From IMG/VR virus record IMGVR_UViG_3300032024_000157, positions 1-46,941 of that record: a DNA stretch of 46,941 bases; one strand, given 5' to 3'. The number at the start of each line of letters is the position of its first letter. Position 1 is the stretch's first letter. Made by a program: the position numbers and the translations under genes. The DNA comes from a virus. Lineage: Duplodnaviria; Caudoviricetes. Below the pieces are notes generated by a model. It saw nothing but the letters and a program-made list of their open reading frames with translations, ran no database searches and was not told where the DNA came from. Of this stretch, positions 1,798-46,941 are shown piece after piece.

Positions 1798-3337
1798 CCC
1801 CGGTCTTGTGTTGCTTAAGCAACGCGAACTGGAGCTTCTTCGCACCAAGCTCGCACTCATTAAAGACCACGGTCTTGACTACTACCGTCCACATGAAAAA
1901 CAACACCTGTTTCATTGTTCTTCTGCCAAACGCCGTGGTTTTTTTGCGGGCAACCGTACTGGTAAGTCTGAATGCGACGCAGCAGAAACAGTCGCCTGGT
2001 TTGTAGGCGAACGTTCTTGGTACAAGTATTCCTTTCCAATTTTCGGTGTTCGTGATGGAGAACGTGTAGTTACCTCTTTTCACGAGGGGCATGACAACCA
2101 TCCTTTAGTTCGTCAAGGTATTCCGCAACATGCCACCAAGCAGCTCGTCATCACCACCGATTGGAAGAAGGTCGACGAGGTGTGGACCTCGGCCCTTGGT
2201 GACCCGCCCGGTAAGATTTGGAAGTTCCTACCGGCCAACCTAAAAGTCGAGACGCGACGCAATCATGAGGGCATCATCGATCGAATTTACAACCCCGTCA
2301 CCGCTGCGGTCATTCGATTCACCAACGAACAAGCGTTTATCAAAAATCCACAGTCTGGTGAATCTACCGACTACGACCGCATTGCTATTGACGAGCCTGT
2401 CTCTGTCGAAATGTGGACCGCTCACGCCCGCGGCCTTATTGACCGTGACGGCCAAGGCGACTTCACTCTTACTTCCCTTCGTGAGCGTTGGATATATGAC
2501 TACTTTAATCCTGAAGACGCCGTCGATGCGCGGGCCGATCGTTTCTCTTTGCGTGCAACCATGCACGACAACCCCTTTCTCTCAACGGTCGCTAAGCAAC
2601 GTTTCATTGACGAACTGTCGCCTGACGAAATCGAATGTCGTGTTAATGGCTTGCCACTAGAACTTTCAGGGTTGGTCTATAAAGAGTTCAGACGCGAAAA
2701 ACATATTCTCGCGCAACTGCCGTCGGGCTGGACCGACTGGGCCAACCCGCCCCTTGATCACACAATCTACGTATCTATAGACGTCCATGAACAAACCCCA
2801 CAAGCTGCGATGTTTGTCGCTGTCGGTCCGACCGGTCACCCTATTATCTATGACGAAATTTGGCGAACCTGCAACGCTGACGAACTCGCCGCTGAAGTGC
2901 TTCTACGTCTCGACGGACGGCAAGTTGGTTTTGTCAAATGTGACCCACGCGCTTGGCTCGAAGACCCTGTATACCACGTATCAATGGCCCAACGATTCTT
3001 TGCCCTCGGTCTCTTTGTCGAAAAAGCCTCCAAAGCCTTAACCTTCGGCATTCAAAACATGAAGTCCGTCCTCAAACGTGAGGCCGTCCATTTTGCCCCT
3101 TCGGTTAAGCGCACCCTGTGGGAAATCAACCGTTGGCACTATGACAAAGAAAACAAACCCATCGACAAAGACGACCATTTCATGGAGTGTATGTACCGCA
3201 TCTTCATGAACACCCTTGTCCATATCGACCCGGCCAAGTCCCAACCCGTAGAAGCCTTTGACATTGATATGTCCTCTAGGGTCCTTCGCGAGTTTAACGC
3301 AGACATGAAACAATTCGATCGAGCATTAACCAACTAA
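1778..3337 (+). CDS. terL: terminase large subunit
   Basis: HEKQ, Walker A FAGNRTGKS, Walker B IAIDEP, DNPFL, RNase H-like nuclease SIDVH...DDHFMECMYR. Confidence 0.93.
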   Translation: MEPEQIDPGLVLLKQRELELLRTKLALIKDHGLDYYRPHEKQHLFHCSSAKRRGFFAGNRTGKSECDAAETVAWFVGERSWYKYSFPIFGVRDGERVVTSFHEGHDNHPLVRQGIPQHATKQLVITTDWKKVDEVWTSALGDPPGKIWKFLPANLKVETRRNHEGIIDRIYNPVTAAVIRFTNEQAFIKNPQSGESTDYDRIAIDEPVSVEMWTAHARGLIDRDGQGDFTLTSLRERWIYDYFNPEDAVDARADRFSLRATMHDNPFLSTVAKQRFIDELSPDEIECRVNGLPLELSGLVYKEFRREKHILAQLPSGWTDWANPPLDHTIYVSIDVHEQTPQAAMFVAVGPTGHPIIYDEIWRTCNADELAAEVLLRLDGRQVGFVKCDPRAWLEDPVYHVSMAQRFFALGLFVEKASKALTFGIQNMKSVLKREAVHFAPSVKRTLWEINRWHYDKENKPIDKDDHFMECMYRIFMNTLVHIDPAKSQPVEAFDIDMSSRVLREFNADMKQFDRALTN

Positions 3338-3350
3338 TGTAAGCCCGCCC

Positions 3351-3761
3351 ATGACAATCACAACCGTAATCAACGCACAGTCTTTCGGAACTTCTACCAA
3401 CATTGGTCCCTTTTTCGCTGCTGCCAAGACCACTCTTGCTGCCGCTACTTCGTCCGTCTTCATTGCTGCTGCTGCAACCGTTCCTGATGCTGCAGTCAAC
3501 AGGTCAACAGTGTTGCGCGTTTGGCACGCCGTCTCGCCAAATAGCTACGGCACCGCCCTTGCCGGTGCGCACGCTCTTGCACAGACCGCCTCTTACATCG
3601 ACGTCACTCTTGATCCGTGTTCGAAACCAACGCTGGTCCTCGAACGCGTCTCCTCCACCCTTCCCGCCGCCGGGAGTAGTACTTATCACTACGTCTGGCT
3701 CGAAGCGCCAACACTGGTTGCTGCTGCTACGGTCACGGTCAAGCTCTGTGAGTCCCCATGA
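3351..3761 (+). CDS. hypothetical protein, probably virion-associated
   Basis: 136-aa Ala/Thr-rich beta-type ORF in the structural operon. Confidence 0.7.
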   Translation: MTITTVINAQSFGTSTNIGPFFAAAKTTLAAATSSVFIAAAATVPDAAVNRSTVLRVWHAVSPNSYGTALAGAHALAQTASYIDVTLDPCSKPTLVLERVSSTLPAAGSSTYHYVWLEAPTLVAAATVTVKLCESP

Positions 3762-3954
3762 CAAACACTCTTCTAGTCAACGGCGCAACTTTGGTGCCGC
3801 AGGTTCTTGTACCTCGGCCGGCCACTCATACCTATTCTTCCGAACGCTTCCTACACCAACCACCTCGGCCGGTGTAAAGCCCCATCCACAACTTCACTAC
3901 TAGTTTCCCCCGGACGTCTACCGTTACGGCACTCCATAATCAACCTCTCCTATC

Positions 3955-4518
3955 ATGCCTTCTGGTCAAACATCCACGGCAAGCAATGCTTTGCCTGTCT
4001 ACGTCGATGACAATACACGTCTCGGCTCCGTTCAGCTCTCTGGCGCTGGCCCCGGAACGTCCGCTCCCAACCAACGTGGTCTCATTCCGCAAATCATCCT
4101 TCCCGGTGGTGTTGCAACCACACTTATTGCAGCACAGTCTGGTTCGACTTGTTGCTGGGACGCTGCAGCCGGCTTTACTTACACACTGCCGGCTCCGGTC
4201 GTTGGTCTGGTGTTCGACTTCGTCGTCACCGTCACCAATACTTCAAGCAACCACAAAGTCATCACCGATGCTGCCACAACCTTCCTCAAGGGTTCTGTCT
4301 TCCAAACGGTCGAAGATACCACTCCTGGTGCCACGGCCGGTCCGAAGGACTTCTTGTTGAACGGCTCTACGCACGTTGCCGTCACCATGAATGGCACCAC
4401 GACTGGCGGCCTCTTTGGTACCAGGCTGCGTTGCCAATGCATCAGTTCAACGGTCTGGCTTGTCACCGGCTATGTTAAGGGTTCTGGCACCATCGCCACT
4501 CCGGCCGCGACCTCCTAA
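3955..4518 (+). CDS. putative head decoration / virion protein
   Basis: AAAGFTYTLPAP...GLVFDFVV and NGTTTGG...WLVTG pattern resembles small beta-rich phage virion proteins. Confidence 0.6.
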   Translation: MPSGQTSTASNALPVYVDDNTRLGSVQLSGAGPGTSAPNQRGLIPQIILPGGVATTLIAAQSGSTCCWDAAAGFTYTLPAPVVGLVFDFVVTVTNTSSNHKVITDAATTFLKGSVFQTVEDTTPGATAGPKDFLLNGSTHVAVTMNGTTTGGLFGTRLRCQCISSTVWLVTGYVKGSGTIATPAATS

Positions 4519-4566
4519 CCTCCAACCTCACCAACCAGTCTCAACCACTGGTTGGTCCTTTTCTTT

Positions 4567-5037
4567 ATGGACTTCACAACTCTCATGGCCGGACCCATCG
4601 GCGGCCTTCTTGGTATCGTAGGCAACGTGGCTAACACCATTCTGGCCATGAAACAAGAAAAGCAAAATCACGAGTTCGAACTGGCTCGTATCCCACTCCA
4701 ACTCAACGCTGATATCGAACGCGGCAAGGCACGTGTCGCTATCGCCGTTGAAGAAACGGCCGGTCAAGCCTTCATTGCTTCACAGCAAGCCGGCAAGGTT
4801 ACCGGTAGCGAATCACGTTGGGTTTTGAACGTTTCTGCAATGATTCGACCTGCAATTCTATTTCTGCTTCTTGTGGGGGTTGTCCTTCTTTACACTTCCA
4901 GCCAGCTTTCAGAAGGCATGGAATCTTACGTCATTCAGAACATCGTCACTGACTTCTCAATGGCGGTCTCTTGGTACTTTGGCGCACGGGCCAGTGCTAA
5001 AGTCATGCAAGGGTTCAAATCCAAAGCCGGCACATGA
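4567..5037 (+). CDS. holin-like membrane protein
   Basis: GGLLG N-terminus, HEFEL coiled coil, IRPAI followed by transmembrane helix, second helix ending WYFGAR, basic tail. Confidence 0.65.
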   Translation: MDFTTLMAGPIGGLLGIVGNVANTILAMKQEKQNHEFELARIPLQLNADIERGKARVAIAVEETAGQAFIASQQAGKVTGSESRWVLNVSAMIRPAILFLLLVGVVLLYTSSQLSEGMESYVIQNIVTDFSMAVSWYFGARASAKVMQGFKSKAGT

Positions 5038-5046
5038 ACTTAACTC

Positions 5047-5361
5047 ATGCCTTCTCACACCGACCCGCCCTTTCCGATGTCTGACTCCATGCATCCTGAA
5101 CTTCGGGCCTTTCTTATCGACCTACGTAGCGATACGCAAGAAATCAAGTTAGCACTTCGAGGTGACAACTTTGGCCAACCGGGCATCGTAAAAAATCTTG
5201 CCAACCTCAAAACGGCTTTTGAAGAGCACGTTATCGAAAACCAAATTAGTTTCGAACAGGAAAACAAGGAATGCGGTAAGCTCAACATAAAGATCGTCTA
5301 CGGAGGCGGTGTTATTGCTGGTGTTCTTTTCGCCCTCGAACTCTACAAAATCTTCAATTAG
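5047..5361 (+). CDS. hypothetical membrane-anchored protein (start may be 5077)
   Basis: Coiled-coil region followed by a C-terminal hydrophobic helix; next to the holin-like gene. Confidence 0.65.
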   Translation: MPSHTDPPFPMSDSMHPELRAFLIDLRSDTQEIKLALRGDNFGQPGIVKNLANLKTAFEEHVIENQISFEQENKECGKLNIKIVYGGGVIAGVLFALELYKIFN

Positions 5362-5379
5362 TGCGCTTCAGAACTGACC

Positions 5380-7305
5380 ATGACTCCAGAAATTGCTAAG
5401 CTTGTGGGAATGAAGGCGCAGCCTCGACAACTTCTTGACTTTACGCAGAGGTTGAAAGACTTGCTTGTCATGTCCCGTTCACAAATGGCAAAGAACTACG
5501 ACCAGTGGGACCGTTACGATCAGGTCTATCGTGGAGAACGCCAAGCCGATGCACAAGACAAGAAAGCTGAGGTTCGTGGCGAGCCGACCAAACTCATCCT
5601 GCCGCTTACTTTTGGACAGGTACAGACTTTTGTTGCTTTTGGTCATCAACTCTATAACCAACGCGACTACTTTTATGAAACCATTGCCTCCGGTCAAGAA
5701 GACGAAGGAGCGGCCAAGCTGGCCTCTGCTTTGCTTGAACAAAATCTGACCTACAACCGCTATCGTGCTGTTAAGCTCATTCAAAAACTTACCGATATTG
5801 CACGTTGGGGTCTTGGTGTTACAAAAACTTCGTGGGTCAGAGAGACTACTCCAATTATTGAGCAAGTTGTCGACCAGGCCGAAATGGCCGCTGTCCGGCC
5901 AGACATGCCCGCACCGGCCGTACCGCCAATGAAGTCGCAAGTCACTTACTCCACGAAATATCTTGGCAATCGTATCGTCAACATCTCGCCCTATCGTTGG
6001 TTTCCAGACGCACGTCTTCCAATTTCACGTTGGAGAGATGGAGAGTTTTGTGGTGACGAAATTGAAGAGTCCAAAGACGAACTGTCGCGCAACCCCTTGG
6101 TGGCCGGCATGGATCACGTCAACGATCTCGGTCCTGAATCCTTCAAAGACCGTCGGATGACTTTCCTCAAGAGACAAAGTGACCCGACTTCTACTGGTGC
6201 GTCCGTTCCGGCCGCTTACGCACTTCTGACTGAAATTCAAATTCGTCTCAATCCATCGAAGGTCGAAATTGACAATGGTGTCTTCCTTAGCGAGCACGAC
6301 TGTGAGCAAATTTATATTGTTTGGATCGTCAACGACGACCGCATCGTCCGTATTTCTGAGGCTGGCTACAACCATGAAGAATTCAGCTATGAGTGTGCCC
6401 AGCTTTTTGACGACCAGAACCGTTTTGTCAACTTCTCCCTCTGTGAGATGCTTTCAGCCCTGCAAGATACGGCTACGTGGTTTCTGAACTCCCACATCAC
6501 TAACGTCCGCAAAAACATCTTCAACCAAATGATTGTTGACGAGACGGCCGTAAACGTTGACGACATAATTAAGCGCCGTCCAATTATTCGCATGAAAGCC
6601 GGTCGTGCGGGTAGTGGTGTTGACACCTGGATTAAACAGCTTCAAACGGTTGACATCACCGGCAACCACGTTGGCGACATCGGTGTCCTTAACGGAATGG
6701 CAAAAGAAGCTACCGGCATCAACGAGACGCTTCTTGGTCAGTTCTCGCCGGGCCGACGGTCTGCAAAGGAAGCGGGCAACGTCGCTAACTATGCTGCTTC
6801 TCGTCTCATTATGATTTTTGGTTCTATTTGGGAGTCGTCTGAAGCGTCACAGGCACGTAAGATGCTTTCGAACCTTCGTCAAGGTCTCGACGAACCCACT
6901 CTTGTTCGTGTCTACGGGCAGGTCAACACACAAATTCAAGTGCAGGACGCATTGGCACTTGTCCCCGGACTGGCCGCACCGGCCGGTCCACAAGCACAGC
7001 TTCAAAGGGTCACCAAAGAAAATCTAATCGGCAACTACGACCTCACCATTTTTAGTGGCATCTTGCCTTCACAACGTCAGGCCAATGCCAACATCCTGCT
7101 TCAATGGCTAGAGACCGCCCTGAAAGACCCCAGGGTTGTCCTCGTTACGGGCCTTGACCCGCAACTTGTTCTTTTTGAGGTCTTCGAACTCTTAGGTGTA
7201 CGCAATGTTCAACGATTCCGACTCACTCCAGAGCGACTACAGCAACTTATGCTCATGGCTCAACCACCCGCAAACGCAGGAAGCCCTAAACCTTCTTCAA
7301 ACTGA
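5380..7305 (+). CDS. portal protein
   Basis: 641 aa, after terminase and before scaffold/capsid; WGLGVTKTSW, ISPYRWFPD, EATGINETLLG...RSAKE match podovirus portal patterns. Confidence 0.85.
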   Translation: MTPEIAKLVGMKAQPRQLLDFTQRLKDLLVMSRSQMAKNYDQWDRYDQVYRGERQADAQDKKAEVRGEPTKLILPLTFGQVQTFVAFGHQLYNQRDYFYETIASGQEDEGAAKLASALLEQNLTYNRYRAVKLIQKLTDIARWGLGVTKTSWVRETTPIIEQVVDQAEMAAVRPDMPAPAVPPMKSQVTYSTKYLGNRIVNISPYRWFPDARLPISRWRDGEFCGDEIEESKDELSRNPLVAGMDHVNDLGPESFKDRRMTFLKRQSDPTSTGASVPAAYALLTEIQIRLNPSKVEIDNGVFLSEHDCEQIYIVWIVNDDRIVRISEAGYNHEEFSYECAQLFDDQNRFVNFSLCEMLSALQDTATWFLNSHITNVRKNIFNQMIVDETAVNVDDIIKRRPIIRMKAGRAGSGVDTWIKQLQTVDITGNHVGDIGVLNGMAKEATGINETLLGQFSPGRRSAKEAGNVANYAASRLIMIFGSIWESSEASQARKMLSNLRQGLDEPTLVRVYGQVNTQIQVQDALALVPGLAAPAGPQAQLQRVTKENLIGNYDLTIFSGILPSQRQANANILLQWLETALKDPRVVLVTGLDPQLVLFEVFELLGVRNVQRFRLTPERLQQLMLMAQPPANAGSPKPSSN

Positions 7306-8427: not shown

Positions 8428-9804
8428 ATGGCCATCCTCGGCTTAATGAACGCGGAGTCCTTTGCGACAAACCGCTATCAGTCCCACCGCCGTCAAGTAT
8501 TCTACTTCTATCCAAACGGCGCGTCTCCACTCATGGGTCTTCTGTCCCTGATGAAAGACTTCACAATCGACGACCCTCAGCATAACTGGGACGAAAAACG
8601 TCTCAGCGAAAACTGGGGTGTCGCTGCCAACATCTCCACGACTGTGGCATTCTATTCCACTGGCGTTACGGTGGCGGCTGGTAAAGTAACCGCGGCCACC
8701 GTCGCTGCGGCAAACTTCACCCCAACGCAAGGCACACAATACGCCATCAAGACCTCAGCCACGCCGGAAAACGTCTTCCGCATCGGTCACATCTTTAGGT
8801 TTGTTGCGACCAACACGTCCGGCAATCCCGAAGAAATCATCGGGCGTATTAATGCTATCAACGTCACAGCTGACACTCCGACCACTACGCTTGGCTTTAT
8901 TGCCGTGCGTACTACGGCTGTTGCTATCGACTACGACGTCTCGACCCATGCAGGCACTCAGCTGACGATCATCGGTTCGGCCTTTGCCGAGGGCATTCGT
9001 GATGAGTCTTCGGGCATCTACAACGAGCCTGTCTCGCCTTATAACTACGCACAAATCTTTCGGAAACCCGTGACCATTACCGGCACGGCCCTAAAGACCA
9101 GCGCGAAGTTTGACGAAACTGGCATCTTCCCTGACCAATCCAAGGAAGCCGCTGTGGACTTCGCCCGTGAACAGGAGTGGAACTACATCTTTGGCGAACG
9201 CGCCAAAATCGGTAGTGCTACCACTTCCATCACCCGTTACATGGGTGGCATTCTCTACTTCCTGAAACTTTGGGAAGCGGGTGCTACTTACGGCAACACG
9301 GCAGCTACAGCCGACACTGACGACGGCAAACGCATCATTTCCAACACCGCAACTACGGTCTCTGCGACCCAGTTTGACGGCTGGATGGAACGCGTCTTCC
9401 GCATCAGCAACAACAAAAGCACCGAAAAGCTCGGCCTTTGTGGTTCTGGCGCACTGCTGACACTCAACCGTCTCTTCAAAAACAACGGCGTGGTAACTAC
9501 GCCGATGCCGATGAAAGAGACTTATGGCATGGACGTCCGTGCCTACACGTGCCCTTCCGGCACGCTGTATCTCAAGACCCACCCACTCATGTCACAAAAC
9601 TCCGTGTTGCGCAACAACATGCTAATTGTTGACATGCCAAACCTTAGCTACGGTTATCTCCGTGGACGCGACATGGAACTTCTGACCAACCGTCAGGACA
9701 ACGATGCCGATTACCGGAAGGACGAATGGTTCGGCGAATCGACTTTGGAACTAAACCTTCCTGAGTCCTTCATGTACATCCAAAACCTCATCACCGCAAT
9801 CTAA
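8428..9804 (+). CDS. major capsid protein (SU10/DUF5309-like)
   Basis: IIGSAFAEG, YNYAQIFRKPVTITGT, E...FGE, RYMGGI, YG...SGTLYLKTHPL patterns. Confidence 0.88.
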   Translation: MAILGLMNAESFATNRYQSHRRQVFYFYPNGASPLMGLLSLMKDFTIDDPQHNWDEKRLSENWGVAANISTTVAFYSTGVTVAAGKVTAATVAAANFTPTQGTQYAIKTSATPENVFRIGHIFRFVATNTSGNPEEIIGRINAINVTADTPTTTLGFIAVRTTAVAIDYDVSTHAGTQLTIIGSAFAEGIRDESSGIYNEPVSPYNYAQIFRKPVTITGTALKTSAKFDETGIFPDQSKEAAVDFAREQEWNYIFGERAKIGSATTSITRYMGGILYFLKLWEAGATYGNTAATADTDDGKRIISNTATTVSATQFDGWMERVFRISNNKSTEKLGLCGSGALLTLNRLFKNNGVVTTPMPMKETYGMDVRAYTCPSGTLYLKTHPLMSQNSVLRNNMLIVDMPNLSYGYLRGRDMELLTNRQDNDADYRKDEWFGESTLELNLPESFMYIQNLITAI

Positions 9805-32043: not shown

Positions 32044-32495
32044 TAGAATTCAGGTGGTTCATCGGTGTTTTGTTCGCCCAAGTCCCTTTCAAGAATTGAA
32101 GGCAACCTTGGGGCGGGAATATGCGAGAGTGGCGAGGGAAGGGTCGGCACAGGCGTCCGGGCTTGGGTTGCTTCTTTCCACGTGGTAATGGCGACTCGTA
32201 AGAAGGCGATGTATTGTATCTGCCCATGCACCCGCATCCTCTCCCCATAGCACCGCTTCCAGAAAGCCTTGAAAGCGTCCGGCATCGGGGTAAGTAGTGG
32301 GCCTTCTTGATCAAGGACGGCACGCTCGGCAGGTGTCGAAGCCTCGGCCTCACCCTCAGTCAACAGAACGTAAAGTTTCGGCCACTTGGTTTCGAGCCAG
32401 TCCTGTTCGACCAGCCAGTCGAGATATGAGTCGTCGACGTCTCTGATGGGCGTCCCTTTGAATTTACCATAGGGCATGGGGTCACGTTCGGTCAT
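32043..32495 (-). CDS. DUF3820 / ExoX C-terminal-like small-domain protein
   Basis: MPYGKFKGTPIRDVDDSYLDWL signature. Confidence 0.75.
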   Translation of the reverse strand: MTERDPMPYGKFKGTPIRDVDDSYLDWLVEQDWLETKWPKLYVLLTEGEAEASTPAERAVLDQEGPLLTPMPDAFKAFWKRCYGERMRVHGQIQYIAFLRVAITTWKEATQARTPVPTLPSPLSHIPAPRLPSILERDLGEQNTDEPPEF

Positions 32496-33961
32496 ATAAA
32501 CTTGACGTTCTTCAACGAACGTCTGTAGAGTTCTGATACGTTGACCACGCAGGCAGCATGGTGCTTTTCGTTGACTTCAATTGCAAGCGGCTGGAGACCA
32601 TACTCAATCGCAGCCAAAGTCGAACTGCCAACTCCTGCGAACGGGTCGAGCACGAGTTGTCCTTTGTGCGCGACAGCGGCGTAGAGCCACTGCCAGAGCT
32701 TAGGCGGTTTGGCAAAAGGGTGTTGTAATGCACGAGTTCCTTCGTCAGTAGCACCCATATAGACAGAGGAAGCCTGCGGTGTAAGTAGCGTAGCATTTCC
32801 TTTTCGGCAGACGATAGCGATTTCATAGTCTTTAGTGAAATTATAAAGAGCCATTTGGTTCATGCAACGGTGGGTCTTGTGCCAAATGAGAGGCCAACGT
32901 TGGACTTTGAAGCCGACACCAAGACAGCGGTCGTAAAGATATTGCCACGTCATTGCGTCAGTCCACATAATGCAGAAGCCGGTAGGTTTGAGGGTGCGAA
33001 AAGCCTGATGGACGAAAGAGTCGAGAAGATCCAGGTTGGGTTGGACTTCATGTTCGGCCTTGACGTCGTCAAGATTCTTCATCCCACCGTGTGGATTTGA
33101 TTGGTCAATGTAGTCCACATCAATAGCATACGGCGGGTCGGTAATAATATGATCCACACTGTCGCCGTCAAAGTTCTTCATGACCTCCAAGCAGTCGCCC
33201 TTTAGACACATCTTGCTAAGTGGAATGAGCATGACGTCGCCTGTCGGCTCTGCACCTGGCTGTTCGCCGTCGTCTTGCAGTTGGGCCACCGAGCCGGACG
33301 ACGGGCCGCCAATAGTAGCAAACACGTTGGTATCATCCAACTGTGCATCCATCAACATCTTTCTTGCGGCCTCGATGTCGAGGGACGGCAAGGTCATCTT
33401 AGCTAGAAGCTTGTTGGACTCTTCTGCTTTACGCTTGACAATTAGATTAAGAGCGTCCCACATCCGTTCGCACTTTTCAATTTCCTTATCACCTTGTTTG
33501 ATATAGACAGCCAACTCTAGCGAGTAAGAAATGTTCGCCCGACTCATGCCAAGCAGTTCACCCGTAGCGTCTTGTGTCCACCGCTCGCCGTGCAGTATCT
33601 TAAACATCGACTGCTTAGCATGAACGTCTGCAATGGCAAGCACACGCTCTTGCCATGACATGGCCTTGCGACGGACGTTCTCCTCGACCTCAAGGATACG
33701 TAAGGTAACTTCGTCGGCTACTTCAAAGTAAGTAACAGGAATATCAACCCACCCCAACTTGCGCATAGCACGCAGACGACGACCACCAGCGACGAGTGTG
33801 CCGTCCAGACGGACGACAATAGGTTGGAGAAGGCCGAGAGTTTTGATACTTTCAGCGAGTTCGTCGATATCTCCATAGTCTTTGCGGATTCGGTCTTTAT
33901 CATTGATAGATGTGATTGGAACGAGGAAGCGTTTGTTATTGTCGATGGTAGGAAGGGTCAT
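32492..33961 (-). CDS. ParB-like N-terminal domain fused to N6-adenine/N4-cytosine DNA methyltransferase
   Basis: LAESIKTLGLLQPIVV...AGGRRLRA...EENVRR; GDCLEVM, TDPPY, HPFAKP, VLDPFAGVGS (beta-class motif order). Confidence 0.9.
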   Translation of the reverse strand: MTLPTIDNNKRFLVPITSINDKDRIRKDYGDIDELAESIKTLGLLQPIVVRLDGTLVAGGRRLRAMRKLGWVDIPVTYFEVADEVTLRILEVEENVRRKAMSWQERVLAIADVHAKQSMFKILHGERWTQDATGELLGMSRANISYSLELAVYIKQGDKEIEKCERMWDALNLIVKRKAEESNKLLAKMTLPSLDIEAARKMLMDAQLDDTNVFATIGGPSSGSVAQLQDDGEQPGAEPTGDVMLIPLSKMCLKGDCLEVMKNFDGDSVDHIITDPPYAIDVDYIDQSNPHGGMKNLDDVKAEHEVQPNLDLLDSFVHQAFRTLKPTGFCIMWTDAMTWQYLYDRCLGVGFKVQRWPLIWHKTHRCMNQMALYNFTKDYEIAIVCRKGNATLLTPQASSVYMGATDEGTRALQHPFAKPPKLWQWLYAAVAHKGQLVLDPFAGVGSSTLAAIEYGLQPLAIEVNEKHHAACVVNVSELYRRSLKNVKFI

Positions 33962-38934: not shown

Positions 38935-39309
38935 TTATACTTCAATCGGTGACTCTTTAGTTGCAGGAAGTCTCGTCATGACGTCAACAATAATACCACC
39001 GTCTGTGGTCAATCTTACTAACCACTCACCACCGATGGCGAGCTTCTGCCACGGACCGACATTTTCTAAGGCCGTTGAAATATAGCGGACAGTTGCCTTG
39101 ATGGAAACTATGTCTTCCGCGTCGTTCGGCGTAATCATCAAGGTCGGACGATTGTCCGACAGAATCGGTATGACCGCCGTGGCATGTAGACCTTTCAAGG
39201 CTTCTAACATGCGGGTCATTTTGGTGGCAATCTCAACGTGTGTCCAGCATCTTTGCTGTGCAGTAGTCCAGACGTCGCTAACCAATGTAGATGTGTGTTC
39301 TTGACTCAT
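38935..39309 (-). CDS. hypothetical protein (124 aa)
   Basis: ORF in the early operon. Confidence 0.7.
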   Translation of the reverse strand: MSQEHTSTLVSDVWTTAQQRCWTHVEIATKMTRMLEALKGLHATAVIPILSDNRPTLMITPNDAEDIVSIKATVRYISTALENVGPWQKLAIGGEWLVRLTTDGGIIVDVMTRLPATKESPIEV

Positions 39310-39354
39310 AAGCTCAATGGTCCTGCCCAGACCGTTCTGGGAAGGACGATGAGA

Positions 39355-40038
39355 TTACGACGCGTATCCGTCGGCAATCTTTTTCTTTTGAGCAACCTGG
39401 TCGTCCCAGATACCCTTGGCCAGCGCTTCACGCGTGGCCGCAACGTCTTGGCCGGTTTTGGTGTTGAACCGTGCGACCGCATCCTCGACGTTGCCCGCGC
39501 AACGTTCAATGAGCGCGTCAGCAATACCAAAGTAGGTCTTCGGGGTCTTTTTGGGACCGGCCGCCTGACGCTCCTGCTTCTTGGGGTCGAACGGCAGTGC
39601 GTTCAACACAGTTTGCATAAGCGACTGATAGCTCGCAATGGCAGCGTCCACACTGGGGAACTTTCCCTGCTGCACGAGGGTGGCGTATACGCGCTCCTCG
39701 TAGTTGGATTCAGTCTCGTCCCATGCCGTGACTTCTTCCTGTGTGATTTTGCCTTCGGCGTCCTTCACCTCGGGCTTGGTAATCTTCACACGGCGTTCGA
39801 TGCCGGTGAGTTGTTCCAGACCCTCGGTGGCCGGCACGCCGGCCTCCTTGTCCTCTTCCAGCCCGTGCAGGAAGCCGTAGCGTGCTTGGTTCAGCACGGC
39901 ACGATACAGGACGTTCTTGTTGGCCTCGTCTTTAGCCGCACCGTTGCGGCCGGCGAGTCGGTCGAACTCTTCAACCGTCGCTGGAACCTCATAGTTGAGG
40001 TTCTTAAAGCTAAGGCACTTGACTTGGATAGTTTCCAT
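39355..40038 (-). CDS. hypothetical protein (227 aa), probably highly expressed
   Basis: Start METIQV; strongly G/C-ending codons; charged helical protein. Confidence 0.8.
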   Translation of the reverse strand: METIQVKCLSFKNLNYEVPATVEEFDRLAGRNGAAKDEANKNVLYRAVLNQARYGFLHGLEEDKEAGVPATEGLEQLTGIERRVKITKPEVKDAEGKITQEEVTAWDETESNYEERVYATLVQQGKFPSVDAAIASYQSLMQTVLNALPFDPKKQERQAAGPKKTPKTYFGIADALIERCAGNVEDAVARFNTKTGQDVAATREALAKGIWDDQVAQKKKIADGYAS

Positions 40039-40150
40039 ATGTTTGATACAGGATGACGCCCTGCGGTCGCCGGGTGAATTGTGCTGGTGCACTCGGGTCA
40101 CCAGAATGAACAGTTGTTGTTCAAAGTAAGAAAAGCTGTGTAGCCCCTGC

Positions 40151-40414
40151 TTATAGCCTGCCAAGGGCAAGTGCGGTGGCACCAGCTAGGCCGGCCAGGA
40201 CAATGAAAAGTAGAAGGATTCTTAAACGTTGGTAACGGCAATCAAGAACTTCCAATTCGGCCTGGAGCTTACGTGCCCACAGTCCCTTTTGCGTCAATGC
40301 TGATTTATACCAGGCCAGTTCAGTTTCAAGTCGCACAATACGACTAGACGCCGCTGCGGTGACGGCTTCAAGACGACTGAAATTAGAAAAAGGTTTATAT
40401 GGCAGTTTAGTCAT
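40151..40414 (-). CDS. coiled-coil protein with C-terminal transmembrane helix
   Basis: Heptad region followed by ILLLFIVLAGLAGATALAL. Confidence 0.6.
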   Translation of the reverse strand: MTKLPYKPFSNFSRLEAVTAAASSRIVRLETELAWYKSALTQKGLWARKLQAELEVLDCRYQRLRILLLFIVLAGLAGATALALGRL

Positions 40415-40631
40415 GGTTGAGTTGTTTAAACCGGCGATAAATTCGGGGACGGCCGGCAATAGTTTCTTTGTTTCGAGTTGGCTTTTCGAGCCAAAGGTGC
40501 CAAAGAAGGTCTAGGTCTGCGGTAACAAACCGCCAGTAGCTTTGATTGAACGGTTGTTTTGAACGAAAAAACTCGACTGGTGTGTGTCCGGGTAGGCAGC
40601 CCATGATACGAAAGGAGTATGGATTATTCAT
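40407..40631 (-). CDS. hypothetical protein (start 40631 or 40673)
   Basis: MNNPYSF...; overlaps the next start. Confidence 0.5.
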   Translation of the reverse strand: MNNPYSFRIMGCLPGHTPVEFFRSKQPFNQSYWRFVTADLDLLWHLWLEKPTRNKETIAGRPRIYRRFKQLNHD

Positions 40632-40678
40632 GGTCACTTTCGGCTCGCGGTCCCAAAAGACCCGGCGCGGCATTGGTG

Positions 40679-40852
40679 TTATTGGCCAGCAACATCGACG
40701 AGCGTTTCTTCCGCCGTGCAGTGGCCGTCCGATTGCACGTTGCCCTCGTGCCATGTCGCGCCGCCGTCGAGCGAGTATTCGCACGCCCAGTCGCCCCAGT
40801 TACAGTCGTCGATGAGGTCCACGAGTTCCGTGAGGTGTATCTTCGGTTTCAT
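40679..40852 (-). CDS. 57-aa hypothetical protein absent from the ORF track
   Basis: My translation MKPKIHLTELVDLIDDCNWGDWACEYSLDGGATWHEGNVQSDGHCTAEETLVDVAGQ; ATGA overlap with the upstream stop. Confidence 0.6.
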   Translation of the reverse strand: MKPKIHLTELVDLIDDCNWGDWACEYSLDGGATWHEGNVQSDGHCTAEETLVDVAGQ

Positions 40853-41100
40853 AGCACGGTGATCAGAGCTTCGGCGGTGCCGTCGGCGTCATCATCTACA
40901 TAGCTGAGTTCACTGTAGCCTCTTAGACTGTAGCCGATGAGCTGCGCGAATTGCCGACGGTCGTCTGCCGTGAAGTCCATCACGGCGATTTTGCTCATGT
41001 CGATTCCGCCGCTGTCGAACAGGTGGCGGACAATGGCGTTTTCCTTAAAGCAGAGGACGCCCGATTTGTTTCTTTCGAATGGTTGGGTTGGGTGTTTCAT
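40849..41100 (-). CDS. cassette-borne hypothetical protein (83 aa)
   Basis: FKENAIVRHL...DRRQFAQLIGYSLRGYSELSY, a pattern I associate with a common small phage family. Confidence 0.8.
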   Translation of the reverse strand: MKHPTQPFERNKSGVLCFKENAIVRHLFDSGGIDMSKIAVMDFTADDRRQFAQLIGYSLRGYSELSYVDDDADGTAEALITVL

Positions 41101-41114
41101 GTTGGAAATTCAGA

Positions 41115-41174
41115 GGTTAACCAGTGCGATACAGACAACGTCATTCATGGCGTGGCTGATCGGGAACGTTCGGC
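41115..41174 (+). repeat. attC-like site 1 (60 bp)
   Basis: GGTTAAC CAGTGC GAT A CAGACA A CG TCA TTCA TGG CG TGGCTG ATC GGGAAC GTTCGGC. Confidence 0.8.
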
Positions 41175-41398
41175 AGATAAGAAATATCTCCATCGCGCTC
41201 CATGCCTTTTACAAGAGAAACGAATGTTTTGCGCTTGGCGGGAATCCACGGCTTGCCCGTGCGCTGGTCGGAATACCAAGCGACTGGTCTGCCTTTGTGG
41301 GTGCAGGTGCCGTCCGAGTAGAGTAGCCAGTCGAGGTAGTCGTAAAGAGCCGAACCTATCGCCCCAGCCAACGTGCGGGGATGTTCCGTGGTTTTCAT
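41141..41398 (-). CDS. cassette-borne hypothetical protein (85 aa)
   Basis: Starts inside site 2 and stops inside site 1 (...PNVPDQPRHE). Confidence 0.7.
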   Translation of the reverse strand: MKTTEHPRTLAGAIGSALYDYLDWLLYSDGTCTHKGRPVAWYSDQRTGKPWIPAKRKTFVSLVKGMERDGDISYLPNVPDQPRHE

Positions 41399-41461
41399 AT
41401 TTTAGGTGCGCTCAACATCGGGGGCTATTCGCCCGCACGCGGCTGAGCTTTATCGTTCGGG
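41349..41461 (+). repeat. attC-like site 2 (113 bp)
   Basis: GCCGAAC CTATC GCC C CAGCCA A CG TGCGGG ... CCCGCA CG CGGCTG AGC TTTATC GTTCGGG. Confidence 0.85.
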
Positions 41462-41823
41462 GAGATGCGACCGTGCTTGGCGAGCACATCGAGGCCGCAG
41501 TGTTCATAAAAGATTTTGCCGCACTTGGCGCAGGGCCATTGCACGCGCTGCGTGTGCGACGGGTGGTTGCCACACACTACCTCATCCGCCCATTTCTGGC
41601 AGTCCTTCCACGATGCGCCGCGAGGCGGTTCAGGCGGGATGGGAATGTTGGTCAGCGATTGGTCGCCCAGTCGGAACTCATGGCGGCAGGTGGACATCCT
41701 GAATCCCCGAACAAATCCCCGGAGCCAACGACGCGCAGCCGACCGGATGCGGTAGCTTCTCAGTCTGCGCCGCATCTTGGGGTGCATCGTGTAGGCGGGA
41801 GTAATCGGCGCGTCGTTGCTCAT
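41425..41823 (-). CDS. cassette-borne Cys-rich hypothetical protein
   Basis: CRHEF...WPCAKCGK...EHCG; starts inside site 3 and stops inside site 2 (...PNDKAQPRAGE). Confidence 0.7.
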   Translation of the reverse strand: MSNDAPITPAYTMHPKMRRRLRSYRIRSAARRWLRGFVRGFRMSTCRHEFRLGDQSLTNIPIPPEPPRGASWKDCQKWADEVVCGNHPSHTQRVQWPCAKCGKIFYEHCGLDVLAKHGRISPNDKAQPRAGE

Positions 41824-41837
41824 CTCAGGAGTTCTAC
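41706..41837 (+). repeat. attC-like site 3 (132 bp)
   Basis: CCCGAAC AAATC CCC G GAGCCA A CG ACGCG ... CGCGT CG TTGCTC ATC TCAGGA GTTCTAC. Confidence 0.85.
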
Positions 41838-42175
41838 CTACTGACGCTCACTTCCGCTTCGGGGTTTTCTTCGCAGGCGTGAAGATATTTCTCCAGCCAC
41901 GGCAAGAAGTTCTCGTAGAGCCCCCAGCCGTTCGGGCTGTTGTGCTTCTCGAATCGCACCGGGTCGGCCTTCATTTGCGCGATTCCGTTGCGCAGTGGCT
42001 CGATGAGTTGTGCGGCTTTCGTGATGCCGATTTCTTCGGGCCTCCAGCACGCCTCATAGATTCCAGCCTCTTCGGCCATCGCTCCGAGATTGTGCGTGAT
42101 GTTTTGCCCGAAGAGTTCTTGAGTGTGTCCGCACGTCGGGCACTGCGGTTTTGTGAGATATACGTCTAGGCTCAT
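41834..42175 (-). CDS. cassette-borne hypothetical protein (113 aa)
   Basis: MSLDVYL...NITHNLGAMAEEAGIY...NGWGLY, a pattern I associate with a widespread small phage family. Confidence 0.8.
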   Translation of the reverse strand: MSLDVYLTKPQCPTCGHTQELFGQNITHNLGAMAEEAGIYEACWRPEEIGITKAAQLIEPLRNGIAQMKADPVRFEKHNSPNGWGLYENFLPWLEKYLHACEENPEAEVSVSR

Positions 42176-42180
42176 GGTGT

Positions 42181-42621
42181 TTAAGAAAAGGTAGAACCAG
42201 TTGGTCCAGACAACGGCGCGCAAGCGCCGTGTCTGACCGCCGCGTTCGCCTCGGCCCCACGCTGCGAACGTAGGTGGGTCAGGAACTCGGCGGCCTTCGC
42301 TCGTGTTTCCTCCTCCGTCCAGCCTGCGGCTTTGTTGTAGAGGAAGTCGAAGTCCTCATTGAAAGGGTCTTCACTGAGCACGAAGTCCAGTGTATCCCCG
42401 GACACATGGCTGGGGTGGATGTAGAAGTTCACGTCTCCGGTAAGATGGCTGACATGTGCCGCGAGCGAGAAGTGAGTCACGCCAGCAGTGATCATCCGGC
42501 GCATATAGTGCGCCAGGCTTTCACTCTTGGGCCGAGGAGAACCAGCAGTCACAGCAGCAACGCCCGTTGCTGGGCCTTGCGATTCGGTAGGGGCGTCTCC
42601 GCCCGTGGATTGAGTTGTCAT
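42181..42621 (-). CDS. cassette-borne hypothetical protein (146 aa)
   Basis: ATG at 42621 inside site 5; reads through all of site 4 (...ANAAVRHGACAPLSGPTGSTFS). Confidence 0.7.
   Translation of the reverse strand: MTTQSTGGDAPTESQGPATGVAAVTAGSPRPKSESLAHYMRRMITAGVTHFSLAAHVSHLTGDVNFYIHPSHVSGDTLDFVLSEDPFNEDFDFLYNKAAGWTEEETRAKAAEFLTHLRSQRGAEANAAVRHGACAPLSGPTGSTFS
42191..42250 (+). repeat. attC-like site 4 (60 bp, textbook geometry)
   Basis: GTAGAAC CAGTT GGT C CAGACA A CG GCGC GCAA GCGC CG TGTCTG ACC GCCGC GTTCGCC; unpaired C and A on the top strand give extrahelical G and T on the bottom strand. Confidence 0.9.
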
Positions 42622-42674
42622 GGGAAGGGTTTTAGCTGCGCTCGGCCGGGCGTGGCTGACCTGCGTCGTTCTCT
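42536..42674 (+). repeat. attC-like site 5 (139 bp)
   Basis: GGAGAAC CAGCA GTC A CAGCAG CAA CGCCCG ... CGGGCG TGGCTG ACC TGCGTC GTTCTCT; left arm slightly irregular. Confidence 0.75.
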
Positions 42675-42955
42675 TCCGGCCAAGCGGTAGGCGCGGATTT
42701 AGCGTGCCGGCGAAGCTCGGCGGCACAGTGCATGGTGACTTGGTGGCCTCGGTAGTGCTCCACTTCATCGAGCACGTCGCCGCTTTTGCGGAAGCCCGCC
42801 ATCTTGGATTTCAGCCCGGCCGCGAGTTCTTCCAAGACCTCTTGCACGCGTTTCTCAAACAAATCCGGGGCGTGGATGGCGGTGTTTGCCCTGACCTCAT
42901 CACCCAACCGAATAACAACCCTGTCTAATATGGCCTCAAATTCCTCTGCCGTCAT
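42632..42955 (-). pseudogene. probable chimera: N-terminal fragment of a restriction endonuclease fused to an unrelated C-terminus
   Basis: ATGA-coupled to the C5 methyltransferase; MTAEEFEAIL...FEKRVQEVL resembles a type II REase start but no PD-(D/E)XK core follows; ends inside site 5. Confidence 0.45.
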
Positions 42956-43950
42956 ATCAGACAGTCTCTCACTGCCTTCGCGATATGCCAAGCCAAGACC
43001 GGGGGCACGGCGTTCCCAACCTGGCGCTCCGTTTCCCGCAATCCGCCGCTGAATATGAAGTTGTCGGGGAATGACTGGATTCTAGCCGCCTCGCGCATAG
43101 AGATGCGGCGGGGCAGGCGATAATGGAATTGAATGTTGCCGTGGCATTCAGCCCGCATGGTGTCGGCCGGTCTCTCTGCCTTGAGTATCCGGCTTCCTTG
43201 TTCGCTGCTCTTTTCGGCCCGGCTCCAAATATGGTTAATGGCCGGATTTTCCGCCACTTCGGCCAAGTCTTCGAGAGCCTGCTTTGAAGTGACCCATGAC
43301 TCACGTTTCAGAGTGGGCACCGGAGGCTGGAATTTCTTGGTCTTTCCCTTGGTCCCTACGATGAAGACGCGCTCGCGCATTTGCGGCACGCCGTAGTCAG
43401 CGGCCAAATACACCTGAGCGGAGACCGCGTAGCCCAAGCTCCTAAACGCAGCCATGATTTCCTCATAGAAATCCTTGTTCATCGGCATGAGAAGCCCCTT
43501 GACGTTCTCGGCCACAAAAACACGAGGCTCCGTCCGGCGAATGGTTTCGATCATTGCCTTGTAGAGATTGGTCCTAACGCCCTCAGAACCCTTGAGGATG
43601 CCGTTGATCGACACGTCCTGACACGGAAAACCGCCGATGACTACATCGGCGGTTTTAGGTAGCGCGGACAGAACCTCCCAGATGTCGTCACAATTTATTT
43701 TGTGCCCGAAATTGGCCTCATAGGTCTTGCATGCCGCCGGCTTGATGTCGTTCGCCCAATCAATGCGATAGGGAAGCCGGTCATAGGTCTTTCCCAGAAA
43801 CTTGAAACCCCCAAGGAACCCCATGTCCAAGCCTCCGCAGCCGGAGAAAAGCGATACCACAGAAAATTCTTTGGGAATTTTCTTCCGGACCATTTGCGCC
43901 ATCACCTGCCCGAAAGTCGCGGGCAGCGGTTCGATAATCATTTTCGTCAT
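42952..43950 (-). CDS. dcm: DNA (cytosine-5) methyltransferase
   Basis: Motifs I SLFSGCGG, IV GGFPCQD, VI ENVKG, VIII QMRERVF, IX REAARIQSFP, X VGNAVP. Confidence 0.95.
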   Translation of the reverse strand: MTKMIIEPLPATFGQVMAQMVRKKIPKEFSVVSLFSGCGGLDMGFLGGFKFLGKTYDRLPYRIDWANDIKPAACKTYEANFGHKINCDDIWEVLSALPKTADVVIGGFPCQDVSINGILKGSEGVRTNLYKAMIETIRRTEPRVFVAENVKGLLMPMNKDFYEEIMAAFRSLGYAVSAQVYLAADYGVPQMRERVFIVGTKGKTKKFQPPVPTLKRESWVTSKQALEDLAEVAENPAINHIWSRAEKSSEQGSRILKAERPADTMRAECHGNIQFHYRLPRRISMREAARIQSFPDNFIFSGGLRETERQVGNAVPPVLAWHIAKAVRDCLI

Positions 43951-44018
43951 TGGGTGAGTTTCTTGAGGTCTGCAGATTTTCGGGTTGATTGCATTCATTC
44001 GGGGCGGTTACTCCGCGG

Positions 44019-44552
44019 TTAAACATTTCGGGTTGATGGAAACTGGAATCCGGCCGCCTCCAATGAGGCGCACTGAGCATCAAGGCGGGCGATAAGGTCG
44101 ATGCATTTATCCCATGTCCGGCACTCAGAAACGGGATTCGTCATGGCCGCTTCGGCGTCCACAGCGTTCGCCGGGATCCATGATTGTGCGCGCGCCAACA
44201 TCATGCGGCTCTCGTCCAGAAGCGCGACCAGCGCGGAGTGTGAGTTGCAGGCGGATACGATGAAGGCGGCGTTGGCCAGGGCGTGTTTCCGGGCGCGATC
44301 TCCATTGCCTTCGTTCTCCGGGTCGTAACTCGGCATTTCGCACACCGGGCCATGCGGGATATACTCCGCCGCAACATGGGGCCACGCTTGGCCGTCATCA
44401 ACAAGCTGCCACGGCGTCGGCGTGTGCGCCTGAATGGGCGTATTGGGCGTGGGTGCTTTGGTGGCTTTAATCCCGGCAACGATCTGGCGGGCACGCTTGG
44501 AAAGACGGCTCTTTTTCGGGGCCGGGTGATAAGTGGAGTTATGGTTTTTCAT
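44019..44552 (-). CDS. hypothetical phage-type protein (177 aa)
   Basis: HTPTPW...ANAAFIVSACN motif pair. Confidence 0.75.
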   Translation of the reverse strand: MKNHNSTYHPAPKKSRLSKRARQIVAGIKATKAPTPNTPIQAHTPTPWQLVDDGQAWPHVAAEYIPHGPVCEMPSYDPENEGNGDRARKHALANAAFIVSACNSHSALVALLDESRMMLARAQSWIPANAVDAEAAMTNPVSECRTWDKCIDLIARLDAQCASLEAAGFQFPSTRNV

Positions 44553-44562
44553 ACGCCTTAAG

Positions 44563-44610
44563 ACTGCACACTGTGCAGTTGCTTGCAAGAATAAAGTTGC
44601 ACAATGTGCA
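44563..44610. promoter_or_regulatory. two TGCACA-N-TGTGCA palindromes (putative operators) between divergent genes
   Basis: ACTGCACA C TGTGCAGT at 44563-44579 and TGCACA A TGTGCA at 44598-44610 in an AT-richer gap. Confidence 0.65.
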
Positions 44611-44631
44611 GTTTCATTACACTGCTTCCGG

Positions 44632-44826
44632 ATGCACTTCGGAGAGGCATTGAAGCCGTGGTCAGCCACGCGAATAGCCCTGACGCTCGGTTGTCCCGAG
44701 AGAACGGTTTACGCGTGGAAGATGAACGAGCGGCTCCCTCCAGAATGGGTCCAGCGCCTCGTGCTGGAGAGACTGAAGCGCATAAAGCCCGACCATGCTG
44801 AACCTCCCCGGCCTGAACGTAGTTAA
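44632..44826 (+). CDS. small HTH (Cro/Xre-like) protein
   Basis: SATRIALTLGCPERTVYAWK...RLPPEW. Confidence 0.7.
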   Translation: MHFGEALKPWSATRIALTLGCPERTVYAWKMNERLPPEWVQRLVLERLKRIKPDHAEPPRPERS

Positions 44827-45073
44827 CGTAGCCGACCGCCAAGGAGACTATCTCCTTGAGGCCAACGTCAATCAGGAGGTGCCGGTGTGCGAATGCGCCG
44901 ACCCGCACGTGGTGGCCAACGGCCGTAAGCCGCAGGAGTTCGTCGATACCCCGATGCACGGCAAGCGGGTGGACATCGTGGTGAAGCGGCAGCGCTACAA
45001 GTGTCAGGGCTGCGGGCGCACCTACTACGCGGACATCCCGAACATGCACAGCAAGCACCGCATGACCCAGCGC
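44795..45073 (+). pseudogene. truncated ISL3-family transposase (zinc-finger N-terminus only)
   Basis: MLNLPGL...CEC...DTPMHGKRVDIVVKRQRYKCQGCGRTY...HRMTQR; similarity stops there and no DDE domain follows. Confidence 0.8.
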
Positions 45074-45078
45074 AGGCG

Positions 45079-45140
45079 GCCGAACCTGACTTCTGTTTGG
45101 CGGTGCTCATTTCCCGAGTGGCTGATGCGGATTGTTCGGG
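45079..45140 (+). repeat. degenerate attC-like site 6
   Basis: GCCGAAC ... GAG TGGCTG ATG CGGATT GTTCGGG; right arm has the same layout as sites 1 and 5, left arm does not pair. Confidence 0.5.
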
Positions 45141-45350
45141 TTAAGAGTTTGCGCCTTTTCGTGGCGTGGCGCTTGGATGCACCCAATTTCCAAGCCCACC
45201 GCAAAGCGGTCGGCGGAACATGTTCTTGGGTATCAACAATCCTTGGTTAGCCAATATAGTGGCGCGTTCGGCGCACTGTTTGATAGACATGAGTGTCTTC
45301 AAACGAATGGCGATTGGGTGCTTGCGTTTGGGAAGCGTTGTGGTGTTCAC
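45141..45350 (-). CDS. basic hypothetical protein (69 aa)
   Basis: Starts 2 nt after the upstream stop. Confidence 0.5.
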   Translation of the reverse strand: MNTTTLPKRKHPIAIRLKTLMSIKQCAERATILANQGLLIPKNMFRRPLCGGLGNWVHPSATPRKGANS

Positions 45351-46626: not shown

Positions 46627-46941
46627 AGGATTGTTACCTTTGTGACAACAGACCGCCTGCGTTGCTTTATTGCCGCGCTTTGGGCCGACCTGCTGCCACC
46701 TCTTGCCGCGCCCGCGTGCGGTGCTACCGAGCCGGCGGCCCTTCCGTTCGTCCGTTCGTCCGTCCTCTCTTCATGCAGGGCTTGGAAGGGCTTGGAGAGG
46801 TGGTGCTACACTAGGTTGTAACAAATAATTTTTTCAGTGGACGGGCCCGGGGCCGCCGCGGGGGGGGGGGGGGGGGGGGGGGCGGGGCGCGGGGGGGGGG
46901 GTGTGGTGGGGGGTGGGGGGGGGGGGGGGGGGGGGCGGGGG

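Follow-up and report, generated by a model that had tools for sequence, protein, structure and literature searches.

Integron cassettes are delimited by attC sites, in which an R'' box (RYYYAAC) and an R' box (GTTRRRY) enclose an imperfect inverted repeat of about 55 to 141 bp. At least two attC sites on one strand within 4 kb, with intI absent nearby, make up an integrase-less attC cluster, or CALIN (PMC4889954). The closest described counterparts of the locus reported here are the CALINs of virulent phages: Qi et al. (2023, PMC9892861) counted 17 of them in 10,705 phage genomes and reported that IntI1 recombined five of the six phage attC sites tested. Their arrays in TJE1, PH101 and P12002L hold several attC sites, no integrase and small genes, have a DNA methyltransferase in or beside the array, and led to the proposal of exchange with bacterial integrons. 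In this work, we analyzed the whole of the phage record IMG/VR IMGVR_UViG_3300032024_000157 (46,941 nt, 98% complete by CheckV; hereafter the window) and describe in it five predicted attC sites bounding four cassettes whose genes all run against the attC top strand, mostly begin inside the site itself and share one reading frame across the crossover point. A first-pass annotation of this DNA had recognized a cassette array but left unmentioned its unusual part, the inversion of the genes, and its view that CALINs are known mainly from chromosomes and plasmids is superseded by those already described in virulent phages.

The five sites, all with their top strand on the window's + strand, are as follows.

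41115..41174, + strand: attC site 1, 60 bp; crossover G at 41168; model R2 40.3 bits, E 1e-9; model R1 34.1 bits
41349..41461, + strand: attC site 2, 113 bp; crossover G at 41455; R2 57.7 bits, E 4e-15; loop with the cassette-1 ATG
41706..41837, + strand: attC site 3, 132 bp; crossover G at 41831; R2 26.1 bits, E 2e-5; encodes the cassette-2 N-terminus
42191..42250, + strand: attC site 4, 60 bp; crossover G at 42244; R2 39.8 bits
42536..42674, + strand: attC site 5, 139 bp; crossover G at 42668; R2 39.3 bits, E 2e-9; loop with the cassette-4 ATG

The scores come from two covariance models. A seed search with the core pattern of site 4 returned at least 126 stretches in genome_contigs; among the matches listed, those with a full attC layout come mostly from records titled Opitutaceae, Opitutia or Verrucomicrobiota, and two such bacterial arrays adjoin an integron integrase (L055, over the TIGR02249 cut-off, and L052, at 261.7 against a cut-off of 265). 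The training set of model R1 consists of 29 bacterial sites selected with this site-4-derived pattern. These support a two-helix bottom-strand structure, with 89% of cells paired compared to 30 to 51% when the alignment is slid, and in the window R1 matches site 4 (E 3e-10), site 1 (2e-8) and site 2 (3e-5), the first two matches being partly circular because the seed pattern stems from site 4. Model R2 rests on 130 bacterial and viral hits from outside the window, eight of them opposite-strand duplicates, with training that includes a look-alike of site 4 in L153 and excludes the twin of site 3 in L186. It recovers all five whole sites on the − strand (E 4e-15 to 2e-5, values that are rough), at the coordinates of the first-pass annotation, which had proposed a covariance-model check; elsewhere in the 46.9 kb the top score is E 0.89. 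The attC bottom strand is therefore the window's − strand, and the top strand its + strand. The models replaced a heuristic scorer of our own, which missed sites 1 and 5 and many sites of L001.

AAC and GTT cores are present in every site, over lengths of 60 to 139 bp, and the outer four bases of the cores often depart from RRRY, as they do in Opitutaceae sites. In the model alignments, L boxes with extrahelical bases stand on the arm opposite the bottom-strand AAC, an arrangement described for attC (PMC5027507). Site 5 has extra unpaired bases in its L'' arm, site 3 has the weakest pairing, and site 1 has look-alikes in the viral loci L004, L010 and L013. Judged by these features, sites 1 to 5 are real attC sites, of the Opitutaceae type. 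As the first-pass annotation held, they form an integrase-less cluster within the CALIN definition, with at least two same-strand sites within 4 kb and no intI nearby. The intI gene of a complete integron was not found: a six-frame search of the window for the tyrosine recombinase family PF00589 gave no candidate, again as annotated (the control was positive in 14 of 14 genomes), and no recombinase was found among 42 window open reading frames (ORFs) scanned with Pfam.

The genes between and beside these sites are listed below.

41141..41398, − strand: cassette-1 gene, 85 aa; cassette 41169-41455; starts in the site 2 loop and runs 28 nt into site 1
41425..41823, − strand: cassette-2 gene, Cys/His-rich, 132 aa at most; cassette 41456-41831; start codon within site 3, end 31 nt into site 2
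41834..42175, − strand: cassette-3 gene, 113 aa; cassette 41832-42244; stop inside R'
42181..42621, − strand: cassette-4 gene, 146 aa; cassette 42245-42668; starts in the site 5 loop and reads through the entire site 4
40849..41100, − strand: 83-aa gene left of site 1; phrog_5848, E 0.007

Sites 1 to 5 are spaced 174 to 353 nt apart, with one gene in each interval. All four cassette genes are antisense to the attC top strand, and three of them begin inside their own attC, whereas in a canonical cassette a top-strand gene ends ahead of its attC. PHROG matches fall on − strand ORFs alone (none of five + strand alternatives tested gave one), and homologues likewise occur in − strand frames only. 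The cargo is of phage type, as first annotated: the cassette-2 gene matches phrog_7696 (E 0.001) and the cassette-3 gene phrog_4019 (E 4e-16), a viral family whose Atlas cluster is 90% viral, with Atlas giving no usable function for the 113-aa protein or for the 107-aa ORF right of site 5. We expect the 83-aa gene to belong to the cassette of site 1, a matching left border for which was not found. A sigma-70 promoter scan stayed at chance level.

Single antisense ORFs in bacterial cassettes are already known. Our comparison set comprised 141 bacterial sites, left from 174 hits after removal of 33 opposite-strand or partial duplicates, and 34 viral sites, left from 37 hits after removal of three weak ones; in the viral set, L153 is a contig of phage-like character from a metagenome-assembled genome. 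With orientation called by the longest ORF, a crude measure, (i) bacterial cassettes read along the top strand in 92 of 103 cases, with 10 on the bottom strand and one tie; (ii) viral cassettes read along the bottom strand in 15 of 25, with eight on the top strand and two ties; and (iii) cassettes beside a phage-borne IntI read along the bottom strand in 11 of 15, with two on the top strand and two ties. AT skew as an orientation test was uninformative in bacteria (43 versus 59) and was not used. The site itself also differs between the pools: all three long sites of the window carry the start codon of their own gene in the loop, and a loop ATG opening a bottom-strand ORF of at least 45 aa is found in 37 of 42 long phage sites compared to 13 of 46 bacterial ones.

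A further regularity concerns the reading frame. Within their own segments, three of the four cassette genes lack a stop, as does the ORF to the right of site 5, and these ORFs extend 28 to 64 nt into the next site; the cassette-3 gene stops directly ahead of AAC, and all five ORFs are in frame with AAC. Other phage arrays have 22 loop-started ORFs long enough to arrive at the next site; 20 of these continue through it in the AAC frame and two end at a TAA in R', while 10 additional cassettes have no such ORF. Where a site has a long open stretch, the AAC-codon frame is the open one in 39 of 46 phage cases (37 of 94 in bacteria); a stop follows in this frame within 25 codons in 52 of 53 phage sites (80 of 139 in bacteria). 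As the phage sites are related to each other, these counts do not represent independent events.

Several comparisons indicate that these cassettes have moved at G|TT. The R' of each site and the R'' of the following one are complementary at 15 of 16 variable positions (4, 4, 4 and 3), compared to 9 of 16 for each site's own R'/R'' pair, and only 48 of 14,400 re-pairings equal the cross-site score; perfect cross pairs also occur in 71 of 103 bacterial cassettes (27 for own pairs) and in 17 of 25 viral ones (2 for own pairs). These end pairs, together with the breakpoints of homologues, delimit G|TT-bounded units whose start is complementary to their own R'', as expected of gene cassettes. At the protein level, six of six cassette-4 homologues retain Asn126, encoded by the AAC of the crossover, and then diverge; one of them, at 95% identity, carries a different tail, and several of the tails resemble other attC arms by eye. 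The cassette-1 protein has two homologues besides itself, at 86% and 74%, the closer one diverging after YLPN, at the crossover, and all five homologues of the cassette-2 protein differ in their tails, P0012 being identical over its first 38 aa. The cassette-3 gene has a 79% homologue in the inverted array of L001, between different sites and neighbors, and a 57% homologue in L002 that stands without attC.

At the DNA level, site 3 and a prophage site in L186 are identical at 116 of 120 positions up to the crossover and at 9 of 40 beyond GTTC; site 4 and the site in L153 are identical at 49 of 56 positions and then at 16 of 40, with the 14-nt loop of L153 being the reverse complement. Because identity to both sites ends at the crossover, the attC body appears to travel with the cassette on its left and to break at R', which is what bottom-strand recombination predicts (PMC5027507). 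Set against window 41831-41841 and 42191-42250, L153:1181-1733 shows 11 identical starting bases and an inverted loop around unrelated genes. The cassette movement at G|TT expected in the first-pass annotation is in this respect borne out, homologues diverging at or next to G|TT; the ongoing gain, loss and reordering of genes that it proposed for this phage would go further, and several results stand against it (see below).

In 301 genomes, the family of G002 (record titled Opitutaceae), a search with the cassette-2 alignment gave a sole hit, in contig C182 of G001 (L186), in a prophage-like block beside host genes. Here, seven attC hits with inverted cargo lead to a 333-aa IntI-like gene, and an eighth attC lies 7 kb off; L186:9565-13423 reads as a complete integron of mirror layout, with an attI-like junction near 12370, and one of its cassettes holds two top-strand ORFs, one helix-turn-helix (HTH)-like by eye. 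An alignment with four chromosomal IntI shows what we take to be the catalytic residues and the IntI-type insertion in the L186 protein. The near-identical viral contigs L192 and L193 (56% identity) have the same layout, with arrays at 3310-6951 and an IntI-like gene, and upstream of intI the junction in L192 looks similar to that in L186; inverted cargo also reads toward an IntI-like gene in L198 (662-2457), and L189 (320-2047) holds an inverted array with a truncated one. In a tree, L186 and L192 group with support of 100/100. PF00589 has no match in five further viral records that carry arrays of this kind, two of them being at least 90% complete. In L195 (Virus Rctr41k, KX853513), an IntI-like gene is annotated xerD, with two weak attC hits about 3 kb downstream. 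Because three phage or prophage loci share the mirror layout beside a full-length IntI-like gene, and one of them shares a cassette with the window, a prophage-borne integrase seems a somewhat more likely source of the enzyme than a chromosomal one.

The phage attC pool differs from the chromosomal pool, since a GAT core at R' is nearly absent from phage or prophage sites (1 of 50, compared to 42 of 141 chromosomal sites). Across the Opitutaceae loci L020-L141, ATC and GAT replace the AAC and GTT cores in 50 and 42 of the 141 chromosomal sites, respectively.

To the right of site 5, the array gives way to a mosaic. The first-pass annotation had placed a degenerate sixth attC at 45079-45140, but only its right half is recognizable: no stem forms across the interval and R2 gives no hit on the right strand. 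The right arm scores 13.8 on a half-site matrix, like the arm of site 2 (13.3), but a chance hit at 8766 reaches 19.0 on this matrix. The annotated spacing of one gene per site, which holds for sites 1 to 5, likewise breaks down here, in a 2.4-kb interval with the following contents.

42632..42955, − strand: 107-aa ORF, N-terminal stub of a type II restriction endonuclease plus unrelated sequence; reads through site 5
42952..43998, − strand: C5 cytosine DNA methyltransferase, 348 aa; PF00145 E 3e-65; TIGR00675 over cut-off; MTase_II E 8e-91
44019..44669, − strand: phage-type gene, start uncertain; phrog_1273, E 0.005
44632..44826, + strand: small divergent HTH gene; weak Pfam HTH matches, E 0.002-0.009; preceded by two palindromes at about 44565-44610
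44795..45250, + strand: ISL3 transposase N-terminal fragment; PF14690 E 1e-7; phrog_5749 E 7e-17, residues 2-94
45114..45140, + strand: attC right half; left arm unrecognizable, with the ISL3 fragment on its left

Such a succession, from restriction-enzyme stub to insertion sequence (IS) fragment, is not one cassette. The similarity of the latter to ISL3 transposases, which with NF033550 covers residues 25-99, stops at about residue 94-99, immediately left of the half site. The 107-aa ORF matches only positions 1-43 of the 340 of PADLOC REase_II (E 8e-5), so that 42632-43998 looks like a type II restriction-modification (R-M) pair with an intact methyltransferase and a cut-off endonuclease. 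The methyltransferase frame is open and intact, and the protein is likely an orphaned anti-restriction methylase; its relatives offered no informative gene context. Contigs of the sequencing runs X1 and X2 omit 33 nt (window 44564-44598) between similar palindromes upstream of the HTH gene, either a variant or an assembly effect. Run X3 holds a small share of the region, in short pieces alone, and no RNA run is among the sequencing runs listed as holding it.

Elsewhere in the window, profile scans place terminase, capsid and a portal of SU10 type on the + strand. The − strand encodes ligase, a nuclease, a PolA that carries a uracil-glycosylase domain, and a ParB-methylase; this ParB fusion, at 32492-33961, is the second methylase of the window besides the C5 methyltransferase. 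The array sits amid small − strand genes at the upstream end of this − strand, early arm. We infer a podophage-like phage of lytic life style. L190 is syntenic with the window and about 69-75% identical over long blocks; because the two window ends adjoin in it, being contiguous there, the genome is probably circularly permuted or terminally repeated. The record itself terminates in G runs (46860-46941), likely a sequencing artefact. Three queries of viral_contigs returned no close relatives.

Taken together, these observations make it fairly probable that the five attC sites and four inverted cassettes were built by an integron integrase acting in trans in an Opitutaceae host, the mirror-layout IntI of a temperate phage being likelier than a chromosomal one. 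The enzyme would cut the folded bottom strand at R', and each attC body would move with the gene whose start it contains. The cassette genes would be read as a single operon from phage early (− strand) transcription instead of from an integron Pc promoter; a gene without its own stop would gain a short C-terminal tail from the next attC, and in any new position the shared frame would bring a stop after no more than about 25 codons. For excision and reordering, attC x attC recombination would be enough, with attI unneeded. New cassettes would be acquired at attC sites, at attG-like sites, or from temperate phages through homologous exchange during co-infection.

A number of results weigh against this reading. 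No attI was found, the junction pattern of L186 and L192 having no match with up to three mismatches, in a class of site that is poorly conserved; nor was a left border, with no GTTAACC at up to one mismatch in 39284-41114. Contigs of X1 and X2, possibly the source of the record, contain no cassette-skipping joint, though contigs drop rare variants. In both syntenic relatives, L190 and L191, the slot holds unrelated small genes and no attC, so that the array is specific to this lineage among those seen, and none of five distant capsid relatives (33-43%) carries attC in a search whose positive control worked. The capsid protein was not found in the 301 genomes, we infer the Opitutaceae host solely from attC type and shared cassettes, and recombination of the window's sites by IntI is itself a prediction. 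The prophage IntI-like proteins score 160 (L186) and 178 bits, under the TIGR02249 cut-off of 265, and the join of L186/L192 with L198 in the tree is weakly supported (81/78). The viral contig L013 (2994-4042) has two cassettes whose longest ORF lies on the top strand, in the bacterial orientation; inversion is hence not universal in viral contigs. Folding of the bottom strands, another check proposed at the outset, went the other way, with whole-site DNA folding energy lower for the top strand in four of the five sites; greater stability of the bottom strand is an average trend of attC sites and not a strict criterion (PMC5027507). Two further candidates at this locus were set aside: an extra site or attI at about 40640-40685 or 40420, unsupported by R2, the half-site matrix and the border and junction searches, and decayed attC halves in L190, suggested by eye and unsupported by R2 or the half-site matrix. 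Within the same slot, L190:8035-8334 encodes a 30%-identical cassette-4 homologue inside a 518-aa ORF, with no attC detected.

The first-pass annotation had the phage using the integrase of its host, and a chromosomal host enzyme does remain a candidate: it could have done everything, the prophage IntI being incidental. Chromosomal IntI is over the cut-off in 123 of the 301 genomes (146 match at E 1e-30 or better; a second chromosomal group scores under the TIGR02249 cut-off), the window's attC family flanks chromosomal cassettes adjoining intI in L055 and L052, and IntI1 recombined five of six phage attC sites in PMC9892861. We nevertheless consider this account rather unlikely, as the two pools are set apart by the direction of their genes, by what their loops contain and by the core of the R box, and as three cargo queries of the 301 genomes gave a single hit, in a prophage integron beside an IntI-like gene and the same type of inverted array (the cassette-3 and cassette-4 genes were not found, in a search without a positive control).

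We see about as little probability in a frozen relic, for which homologous or illegitimate recombination would have taken a block out of a temperate-phage integron, with intI and attI left behind; the block would be kept for its genes, its shuffling in this phage having ceased. Such a history is compatible with our account of how the cassettes were made, and it would explain why attI and the border of the first cassette were not found, why a half site and an R-M/IS mosaic stand at the right end, the extra bases in the arm of site 5, the relatives without an array and the lack of variant joints in contigs. Against it, near-perfect end pairs are kept in four cassettes, the 95%-identical cassette-4 protein with another tail makes turnover of the pool recent, and attC x attC excision requires no attI (PMC8946536). 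It is highly improbable that the hairpins merely resemble attC and act in RNA, as terminators or in the control of translation, or else belong to another recombinase as its repeats. They would be transcribed with the genes and contain start codons, and their top strand often gives the better fold, but no Rfam family reached its gathering score on them, terminator-like counts are at chance level (9 versus 7.7), the same site family adjoins intI genes, and neither cross-site end pairing nor breakpoints at G|TT would be predicted.

Beyond this locus, we tentatively suggest, while holding it more doubtful than not, that Opitutaceae phages run an integron economy of their own, in which temperate phages with a dedicated IntI and attI maintain a mirror cassette pool that lytic phages tap at co-infection. 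If so, the pool would have a grammar: a bottom-strand gene, its start in the hairpin loop, one frame across the crossover and a stop supplied by any neighbor. The mirror layout would also insulate the pools, a foreign cassette, be it a host defence cassette or a phage gene, facing away from the promoter and staying silent; recent preprints report that integron cassettes often carry anti-phage defence. Near-identical ends around unrelated genes (cassette 3 and L153) and attC-free homologues (L002 and L190) would then be snapshots of cassette making. Integrons are regarded as bacterial devices, and their chemistry appears here to be diversifying the early genes of a phage in a reversed design, with phage-borne integrases nearby. 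The locus offers concrete material for asking whether phages adapt by means of integrons and how a gene becomes joined to an attC, the latter because the site encodes part of its gene and one and the same site is found around unrelated genes.

Compared to the TJE1 array among the virulent-phage CALINs, the window departs in the direction of its cargo, the TJE1 genes lying along the attC top strand. The available text of PMC9892861 contains no account of inverted cargo, loop starts, read-through tails or cassette turnover between phages, and we found no paper on inverted phage-cassette cargo or on a phage-specific IntI with such arrays, although the Dryad annotation of Qi et al. could show cases. 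The sedentary chromosomal integrons of Opitutaceae (L052, L055, L023, L032, L037, L060 and others) resemble the window in their L boxes with two unpaired bases, spacers of 5-6 nt and cross-site R'/R'' pairing, and differ in their mostly top-strand genes, shorter sites (median 67 compared to about 100-113 nt), common GAT cores and an intI divergent from the genes. The phage and prophage integrons L186, L192/L193 and L198, with the truncated L189, share inverted cargo, loop ATG and frame, and L186 also cassette 2 and a near-identical site 3; unlike the window, they have an IntI-like gene with an attI-like junction at its 5' end and cargo reading toward it. The Treponema-group integrons with inverted integrase (Cury et al. 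2016, PMC4889954) also have intI and cassette genes in the same direction, but there intI is turned to match the attC direction, whereas in the phage arrays the cargo gene is turned and intI keeps its usual position. Insertion at attG, producing single attC sites lacking an integrase (SALINs), provides an attI-free entry route into replicons at GWT sites (Loot et al., bioRxiv 10.1101/2022.09.11.507474); it has been shown in bacterial chromosomes, and no left border of attG type was identified in the window. Measured against these systems, the sequence comparisons argue that the locus is a real phage CALIN of a mirror-image kind, which follows a reading-frame rule of its own and is visibly connected with phage-borne integrons.

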